In this document: one piece after another, positions 59,501-60,100 of the stretch | Layout of the letters: every line of letters starts with the position of its first letter | Numbering within the stretch: the stretch's first letter is position 1 | Assembly: GCF_013167455.1 (NCBI RefSeq) | Contig: NZ_CP038328.1 | Strand: one strand, 5' to 3' | Source of the DNA: Escherichia coli O157:H7 | GTDB lineage: Bacteria; Pseudomonadota; Gammaproteobacteria; Enterobacterales; Enterobacteriaceae | Length of the DNA stretch: 64,000 bases | Program-made: the position numbers

Positions 59501-60100
59501 TGTATTCTCGATATTCGTCCGTTGAAAGAAGAAACCGGCATCAGCGAGCTGGATATTGCCAAGCGCCTGATCGACTACGGTTTCCACGCGCCGACGATGT
59601 CGTTCCCGGTGGCAGGTACGCTGATGGTTGAACCGACTGAATCTGAAAGCAAAGTGGAACTGGATCGCTTTATCGACGCGATGCTGGCTATCCGCGCAGA
59701 AATTGACCAGGTGAAAGCCGGTGTCTGGCCGCTGGAAGATAACCCGCTGGTGAACGCGCCGCACATTCAGAGTGAACTGGTCGCCGAGTGGGCGCATCCG
59801 TACAGCCGTGAAGTTGCGGTATTCCCGGCAGGCGTGGCAGACAAATACTGGCCGACAGTGAAACGTTTGGATGATGTTTACGGCGACCGTAACCTGTTCT
59901 GCTCCTGCGTACCGATTAGCGAATACCAGTAATTCACTGATTCGACTATCTTCTAAAGGCGCTTCGGCGCCTTTTTAGATTGTTAATAAAGTGCGCTTTG
60001 TGTGTTTCGGCTGAGGCGTAATATAAAATATTGCGAGCTCAATATATTAAAAGAGTGCCAGGCCTGATGAGCGTAGCGCATCAGGCACATCGGCTAATTA

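Follow-up and report, generated by a model that had tools for sequence, protein, structure and literature searches.

A common ygfF-free allele with a putative BIME-1 occupies the gcvP-bglA spacer of Escherichia coli O157:H7

Escherichia coli O157:H7 lacks the gene ygfF between gcvP and bglA, and this absence is a polymorphism of the whole species. Judged by gene order in related genera, it is a derived loss. O157:H7 probably (at a rough probability of 0.7) carries a common, old empty allele from which ygfF was lost by a single deletion between a z1-type REP and the hairpin downstream of the gene, in a progenitor that possessed both a BIME-1 and ygfF. That progenitor allele and the crossover from REP to hairpin are what we infer from the alleles described below.

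The gcvP-bglA region of O157:H7 and its terminator

The sequence analyzed was a stretch of 64,000 nucleotides of contig NZ_CP038328.1 (assembly GCF_013167455.1), which is called the window throughout. On its plus strand, gcvT (55434-56528) and gcvH (56552-56941) are followed by gcvP (57059..59932), listed among the ORFs as the gene for the glycine decarboxylase P protein of 957 aa, with a TAA stop at 59930-59932 and no difference in sequence (100% identity) from gcvP as annotated in O157:H7 strain PV15-279. The minus strand carries bglA (60098..61531, according to the ORF list and the RefSeq annotation), encoding 6-phospho-beta-glucosidase A, which has 477 aa in the O157:H7 annotation and the C-terminus ...NGENL*. 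BglA of the window shows 99% amino acid identity to K-12 BglA, and the only change at the C-terminus is N/K in the third-last residue. The earlier note had described gcvP and bglA as convergent and 165 bp apart, which is exact, as the spacer extends over 59933..60097 between the end of gcvP at 59932 and that of bglA at 60098. A 1165-bp query spanning the spacer was 100% identical in many O157:H7 chromosomes, where gcvP and bglA are annotated back to back.

The end of BglA including its stop (window 60098-60106) is polymorphic, and this variation is independent of the allele present in the spacer. It reads ...GENL-TAA in O157 and B2 strains and ...GEKL-TAA in K-12, E28 and LWY24, and the bglA stop is TGA in L098, L006, W4 and N3.

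When the whole window was searched with YgfF using tblastn, no YgfF-coding sequence was detected, and the window contains no SDR of about 247 aa that scores above the equivalog cutoff and lies between gcvP and bglA. Similarly, no Rfam family (E <= 1) matched within 59700-60400. The longest ORFs of the spacer amount to 35-37 aa; small ORFs of 21-37 aa were considered as genes and rejected as mechanical, and indels between the two empty subtypes described below break them.

An intrinsic terminator of the gcvTHP operon was identified at 59955..59976 on the plus strand, with an 8-bp stem (AAAGGCGC/GCGCCTTT), a TTCG loop and a T run. It begins 22 nt past the gcvP stop, and TTTTT overlaps and follows the stem, as in other intrinsic terminators. 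Folding of AAAGGCGC-TTCG-GCGCCTTT-TT gave -15.5 kcal/mol (z = -4.0), and none of 200 shuffles folded as well. A rule-based promoter and terminator scan of the spacer reported 0 sites and left the gcvP terminator unflagged because the A-T closing pairs of the stem consume part of the T run; the miss is regarded as a limitation of the rule, and for the terminator folding overrides the scan. The same hairpin is kept in K-12, Salmonella, E. albertii, Klebsiella, Kluyvera and Phytobacter.

Comparison with the K-12 interval

From the K-12 gene order, the earlier note had expected ygfF in this place and concluded that the strain lacks it. The gene order assumed was correct, since bglA (b2901), ygfF (b2902) and gcvP (b2903) are consecutive in MG1655. 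Alignment of the spacer with the K-12 interval, as the same note had proposed, showed that K-12 holds ygfF there. With a spacer of 165 bp as compared to a K-12 interval of 1066 bp, the lack of ygfF was borne out, though it is not specific to this strain. In pairwise alignment, O157 and K-12 are nearly identical over the end of gcvP and the first 46 nt of the spacer; the sequence beyond is unalignable until near-identity resumes at the bglA stop.

The 80 nt between terminator and REP of O157 have a GC content of 35%. A simple internal deletion of the K-12 interval was tried as an origin of the O157 spacer and rejected: 59979-60058 reached an SW score of 12 against K-12, with shuffles at 11.1 ± 1.6, and no ygfF remnant was found. 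The K-12 gcvP-ygfF spacer (L001:5403-5668) contains a 207-bp insertion, and that of E. coli E28 (L107:701-759) is compact with 59 bp. The 207-bp insertion of K-12 contains G-rich palindromic repeats, which have been listed as HPGQ 32/33 (PMC5100583).

Distribution of gcvP-bglA alleles in E. coli

The census covered 5426 complete E. coli genomes, in 5401 of which the gcvP-bglA flanks are collinear. ygfF was present in 3057 of the 5426 (56%), in one place each save 4 extra places and never on a plasmid, and ygfF DNA was absent altogether from 2369 (44%). Being variably present at a collinear site, ygfF is an accessory gene by this test. The O157-type empty spacer was detected at 95% identity or more in 1928 genomes, including O157:H7, UTI89, ST131 and ATCC 25922. 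A second empty subtype (about 424 genomes, among them LWY24, N3 and an O145 strain) has junctions as in the O157-type and a central part that is about 86% identical. In 17-18 genomes of the 5426, the slot is occupied by a gene for a 297-aa protein, here called 'transporter'. These four allele classes sum to about 5426 without overlap, and therefore genomes without ygfF at gcvP-bglA have no ygfF elsewhere. With 44% of the complete genomes lacking ygfF, its absence is an ordinary, old gene-content polymorphism of the species and not a feature of one strain.

Accounts by other routes, in which ygfF was gained in K-12-like lineages so that the O157 state is ancestral, or the assembly is artefactual, or ygfF was relocated, are extremely improbable. 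The last two are already contradicted by the census, as the same spacer occurs in 1928 independent complete genomes and ygfF DNA is found nowhere in the 2369 genomes without ygfF at the site.

Among the named strains matched, K-12, C600, B-strain derivatives and O111:H8 carry ygfF. We take these strains to belong to phylogroups A/B1 and O157:H7 to belong to E; UTI89, ST131 and ATCC 25922, all without ygfF, are presumably B2 pathogens. Judging from the named strains and these phylogroups, A/B1 strains appear to possess ygfF and E/B2 strains to lack it.

In 108 genomes ygfF is present at 90-95% identity, and a divergent ygfF (L006:2501-3243) from the ST536 mussel isolate of E. coli shows 93% nucleotide identity to K-12 and is annotated as a frameshifted pseudogene. 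Also, one plasmid-labelled record in the E. coli collection carries the chromosomal gcvP-bglA region with an empty spacer and is probably a mislabelled or chimeric replicon.

Gene order in other Enterobacterales

A scan with YgfF, using one genome per species, returned at least 80 loci, all of them from genera other than Escherichia and Salmonella. Among the matches listed (tblastn), the order gcvH-gcvP-ygfF was found in about 70 of 80 Enterobacterales species of other genera, and bglA directly follows ygfF in most Enterobacteriaceae among these matches. The order gcvH-gcvP-ygfF(-bglA) includes Phytobacter, Citrobacter sedlakii, Enterobacter, the Klebsiella oxytoca group, Kluyvera, Rahnella, Erwinia, Pantoea and Yersinia nurmii, and adjacency of gcvP and ygfF reaches Rahnella, Serratia, Erwinia, Pantoea, Hafnia and Yersinia, that is, across Enterobacteriaceae, Erwiniaceae and Yersiniaceae. 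In Klebsiella, Kluyvera and Phytobacter, the gcvP terminator is followed by the ygfF ribosome-binding site within about 20 nt. Such compact ygfF alleles, in which the terminator hairpin directly precedes the ribosome-binding site, exist within E. coli as well (the 59-bp spacer of strain E28). The non-coli Escherichia L098 (GCA_004323655.1) has ygfF here, too. Its gcvP is 95.4% identical to that of O157, and its ygfF shows 93% nucleotide identity to that of K-12, which, compared to 95% for the flanks, fits vertical descent.

This synteny across Enterobacterales argues that ygfF is ancestral and that its absence is derived. In favor of a gain of ygfF in K-12-like lineages, the GTDB representative E. 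coli genome, Salmonella and E. albertii are all without ygfF at the site, and the best non-Escherichia YgfF match among those listed is 85% identical. However, a gain would leave unaccounted for the adjacency kept across three families and for the descent pattern of the L098 gene.

A putative BIME-1 in the spacer

BIME-1 elements occur in single copy and consist of a z1 REP and an inversely oriented y REP with a conserved long (L) linker between them (PMC3333891). Positions 59988-60087 of the window form a putative decayed BIME-1 composed of a y REP remnant, an L linker and an intact z1 REP. Its left and middle parts (59988..60055) comprise the flank motif AAAGTGCGCTTTG, the y-REP remnant at about 60007-60021, which carries an internal deletion, and the L linker at about 60030-60055 (...GCTCAATATATTAAAAG). 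The right end is a z1-type REP (TGCCAGGCCTGATGAGCGTAGCGCATCAGGCAC) at 60056..60088, which from its fold would provide the bglA transcript with a 3'-terminal hairpin. Where the earlier note had counted one terminator and one REP, the terminator stood up to folding, and the single REP turned out to be the surviving half of the putative BIME-1.

The 33-nt palindrome at 60056-60088 folded with -20.3 kcal/mol (z = -3.8) and fits the definition of a REP (imperfect, 20-40 nt, extragenic and multi-copy), the copies having been counted within the window alone. The window contains three sites of this REP class (35654, 60062 and 62728), against a chance expectation of 0; they correspond to 4 pattern matches, as the palindromic REP of the spacer was matched on both strands. 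At the foot of their palindrome, REPs carry the conserved tetranucleotide GTAG/CTAC (PMC3333891). The foot of the spacer REP is CCAGGCCTGATG (CCAG) and thus departs from this rule, and the intact REP copies at 35675 and 62716 have a foot equivalent to GTAGGCCTGAT. Owing to the altered foot, the z1 REP of the spacer is probably no longer a substrate for a REP-associated transposase.

An intact BIME-1 is present in the window at 35651-35751 (35640-35770 in the alignment), with a z1 REP, an L linker containing TGCAATATATTGAATTTGCA and a y REP, located behind a terminator-like hairpin, and this copy served as the in-genome reference for aligning the spacer. Positions 59988-60087 aligned with its reverse strand from end to end (SW 34 as compared to 9.7 ± 1.6 for shuffles, z = 15). 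When the z1 REP was omitted, the left part gave a marginal SW of 15 (z = 3.5), which is under the best shuffle (17). Another repeat, a z2-type REP (GTAGGCCTGATAAGACGCGCCAGCGTCGCATCAGGC) followed by a partial second copy (GCCTGATGCGACAC), is located at 62716-62775 between the convergent genes trhA and ygfZ.

Alleles with a 'transporter' gene in the slot

In Salmonella enterica, E. albertii and rare E. coli, the 'transporter' gene (894 bp, 297 aa) lies between gcvP and bglA, and its product contains a Phenol_MetA_deg domain (PF13557, E = 1.4e-12). The slot states of Salmonella and E. albertii were recovered via an identical GcvH protein and protein cluster membership, and gcvP of the Salmonella loci with identical GcvH is 87.6% identical to that of O157. 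The gene was located at L093:9882-10775 in Salmonella, at L100:6001-6894 in E. albertii, and at L105:1784-2677 and L104:1784-2677 in E. coli. Within E. coli, 17 genomes have it, plus an eighteenth that retains the 3' end alone. It is intact in Z0117EC0005 (L105) and interrupted by a stop at codon 45 in LD67-1 (L104). In WB61 (L106:2500-2624), an independent deletion has cut gcvP short and fused it to the terminal 120 nt of the 'transporter' gene; the annotation lists this gcvP as a pseudogene. As LD67-1 and WB61 show, the cassette is decaying in E. coli.

The E. coli and Salmonella copies share 96.4% nucleotide identity, in contrast to 87.5% for the adjacent bglA and 91.7% for the 3' end of gcvP, and therefore the transfer between Salmonella and E. 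coli is much more recent than the species split. The E. albertii gene is 88-89% identical to the E. coli and Salmonella copies. An ancestor carrying ygfF and the 'transporter' gene in tandem was considered and rejected: no homologue of the latter was present in the 80 outgroup loci listed, and the allele counts leave no class with both genes.

The junction from terminator to BIME is common to O157, Salmonella, E. albertii and the transporter-type E. coli. The first 81 nt of the O157 spacer are 89% identical to the sequence following gcvP in Salmonella (E = 2e-25), and homology with Salmonella and with transporter-type E. coli extends through TTCAATATATT. E. albertii has the common start of the BIME stretch and, at the corresponding position, a near-identical z1 REP core (CTGATAAGCGTAGCGCATCAG). 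Altogether, the left 125 nt of the spacer are most similar to transporter-type alleles, which makes it possible either that the deletion occurred in a transporter allele or that the spacer is a joint of two alleles.

Under the first of these alternatives, an allele with the order gcvP, terminator, BIME-1, AT-rich promoter, 297-aa gene, hairpin and bglA would have lost its gene by deletion; ygfF would have been replaced earlier, with no direct loss of ygfF in the O157 lineage. The similarity of the spacer to the Salmonella sequence, the E. albertii transporter allele with its REP core in the same position, and the deletion in WB61, which provides a known case of independent cassette loss, are consistent with such an origin. 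Nevertheless, we regard it as unlikely, as the bases next to bglA point elsewhere: the 15 nt before the O157 bglA stop (GGCACATCGGCTAAT) agree with ygfF-type alleles in 13 of 15 (L098) or 11 of 15 (L006) positions and with the three transporter-type alleles in 5-7 of 15. Also, the common BIME does not discriminate between the two origins, since a BIME-1 upstream of ygfF is implied by K-12 and L098.

K-12 keeps TGACAAAGTACA, which represents 12 nt of the y-side flank of the BIME, agrees with E. albertii in 12 of 12 positions and lies at an equal distance from the terminator; the BIME remnant of K-12 spans only 12-17 nt. For the remainder of the K-12 spacer, there was no significant similarity to BIME-bearing alleles (SW 12-16, shuffles about 11.5). 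The proposal that the right edge of the 207-bp insertion of K-12 corresponds to the upstream region of transporter-type alleles was dropped (SW 12-16, with shuffles at about 11.5), and the 12-nt match was kept. In L098, the unit of gcvP terminator and BIME-1 is tandemly duplicated upstream of ygfF (L098:4596-5000), with three copies of the terminator. The BIME stretch of E. coli L105 matched the opposite strand of the z1-L-y unit in L098 (SW 46, shuffles 11.3 ± 1.8), and the orientation of the L098 BIME is opposite to that of O157. The palindromic terminator may have been the joint of inversion and duplication in L098. Taken together, the K-12 remnant and the BIMEs of L098 indicate that ygfF-bearing alleles with a BIME-1 behind the terminator existed.

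Proposed origin of the empty allele

In ygfF-type alleles, a REP-like hairpin (CCGGATGCAACG...CGTTGCATCCGGCAC) precedes the flank bases on the bglA side, and the right arms of this hairpin and of the z1 REP have GCATC(A/C)GGCA in common. Because of this common arm and the closer agreement of the right flank with ygfF-type alleles, which was judged over 15 nt, we propose a deletion from the z1 REP to the hairpin. The ancestral Enterobacterales order is gcvT-gcvH-gcvP, terminator, ygfF, hairpin and bglA, and in the progenitor a BIME-1 would have become inserted between the gcvP terminator and ygfF. A single deletion by short-homology recombination, reaching from the z1 REP into the REP-like hairpin on the 3' side of ygfF, would then have removed ygfF. 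Of the slot, there remain the gcvP terminator, one putative BIME-1 and, of the flank usually found after the 3' hairpin of ygfF, nine bases. These nine bases, between the REP and the bglA stop codon (60089..60097), are the proposed right-hand junction of the deletion. The progenitor itself, in which an intact ygfF would directly follow a BIME-1 oriented as in O157, was found in none of the genomes examined, the BIME-1 of L098 being inverted and duplicated.

The second alternative explains the mosaic character of the spacer, with a left part closest to transporter-type and a right flank closest to ygfF-type alleles, as a hybrid joint. Recombination between lineages would have combined a transporter-type sequence up to the z1 REP with a ygfF-type sequence from the 3' hairpin onward, an unequal crossover having lost both genes. 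Exchange of the cassette across species is real at this site, as seen from the identities of the 'transporter' gene and bglA between E. coli and Salmonella. However, two alleles would have to meet in one cell and cross over on about 11 nt of homology, and the reciprocal product with both genes was not seen among the allele classes. We consider this course of events highly improbable.

For the deletion from a progenitor with BIME-1 and ygfF, the junctions common to both empty subtypes argue for one event. The divergence of about 14% between the BIMEs of these subtypes, together with the cassette exchange between species, suggests an old allele that was moved by recombination in the flanks. The null allele would since then have segregated in E. 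coli beside the ygfF alleles and the rare Phenol_MetA_deg alleles, aided by homologous recombination in the conserved flanks.

Discussion

K-12 YgfF scored 531.6 bits against NCBIfam NF007273 (PRK09730 equivalog; cutoff 406) and matches the Pfam families adh_short and adh_short_C2. Glucose 1-dehydrogenase activity has been reported for YgfF in vitro (PMC10645960), and the protein has been classified as SDR63C in the glucose 1-dehydrogenase subgroup (PMC12506659). Given that 44% of the complete E. coli genomes do without it, YgfF is dispensable. As far as the sequence indicates, nothing suggests that the loss of ygfF disturbed its neighbors, the gcvTHP terminator being intact and the 3' hairpin of bglA kept. 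In the empty allele, gcvTHP would end at its own terminator and the bglA mRNA at the REP hairpin, and the cell would simply be without YgfF.

The polymorphism of ygfF is already visible in public annotation, and the absence of ygfF has little import for biology at large. Conclusions on YgfF drawn in K-12 do not carry over to O157:H7, nor to UTI89, ST131 and ATCC 25922, which we take to be B2 strains. In metabolic models and in annotation of the 'y-ome', ygfF is best handled as an accessory gene. The gcvP-bglA slot, of which at least five structural alleles exist, provides a convenient lineage marker. It is also a small, clean case for examining how genes are lost and cassettes replaced through REP/BIME elements and homology in the flanks, and it includes a recent exchange between Salmonella and E. 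coli. These by-products of the analysis, namely the five-allele slot, the putative BIME-1 at a breakpoint and the cassette exchange, may be of modest use for research on repeat-mediated genome plasticity.

A broader reading would see in the spacer one of at least five alleles of a recombination hot spot between convergent core genes, which persists across Escherichia, uses REP/BIME elements as breakpoints and holds mutually exclusive contents, that is, ygfF, a Phenol_MetA_deg gene of outer-membrane type recently exchanged with Salmonella, or nothing. We think this quite doubtful. If the persistence of the slot were due to selection and not to drift and recombination, for instance because YgfF or the membrane protein is costly in certain niches, it would offer a compact case from nature in which balancing selection acts on cassette turnover mediated by REPs.

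Compared to the BIME-1 elements described in the literature (PMC3333891), the putative BIME-1 of the O157 spacer has the same order and orientation of parts, the L-linker core CAATATATT, a site behind a terminator and a single copy. In contrast, its y REP lacks about 15-20 nt and has lost its hairpin, and the GTAG foot of z1 is replaced by CCAG.

The slot of Salmonella, E. albertii and rare E. coli resembles that of O157 in the terminator, in the junction from terminator to BIME and in the sequence of the BIME. Unlike O157, transporter-type slots contain about 1.2 kb in addition (an AT-rich upstream region with 32% GC, the 894-bp gene and a hairpin of its own) and have a different flank on the bglA side. 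Like that of O157, the MG1655 interval of K-12 lies between gcvP and bglA in convergent orientation and has the gcvP terminator; however, it holds the 207-bp insertion, the 744-bp ygfF and a REP-like hairpin, whereas that of O157 holds the terminator and the putative BIME-1.

Comparisons of K-12 with O157:H7 by Perna et al. in 2001 and Hayashi et al. in 2001 reportedly described K-12-specific segments ('K-islands'). The ygfF segment is like such K-islands in being a small piece of K-12 DNA that is absent from O157:H7, with collinear backbone on both sides. Unlike them, the missing segment is here the ancestral state, and the derived deletion is that of O157.
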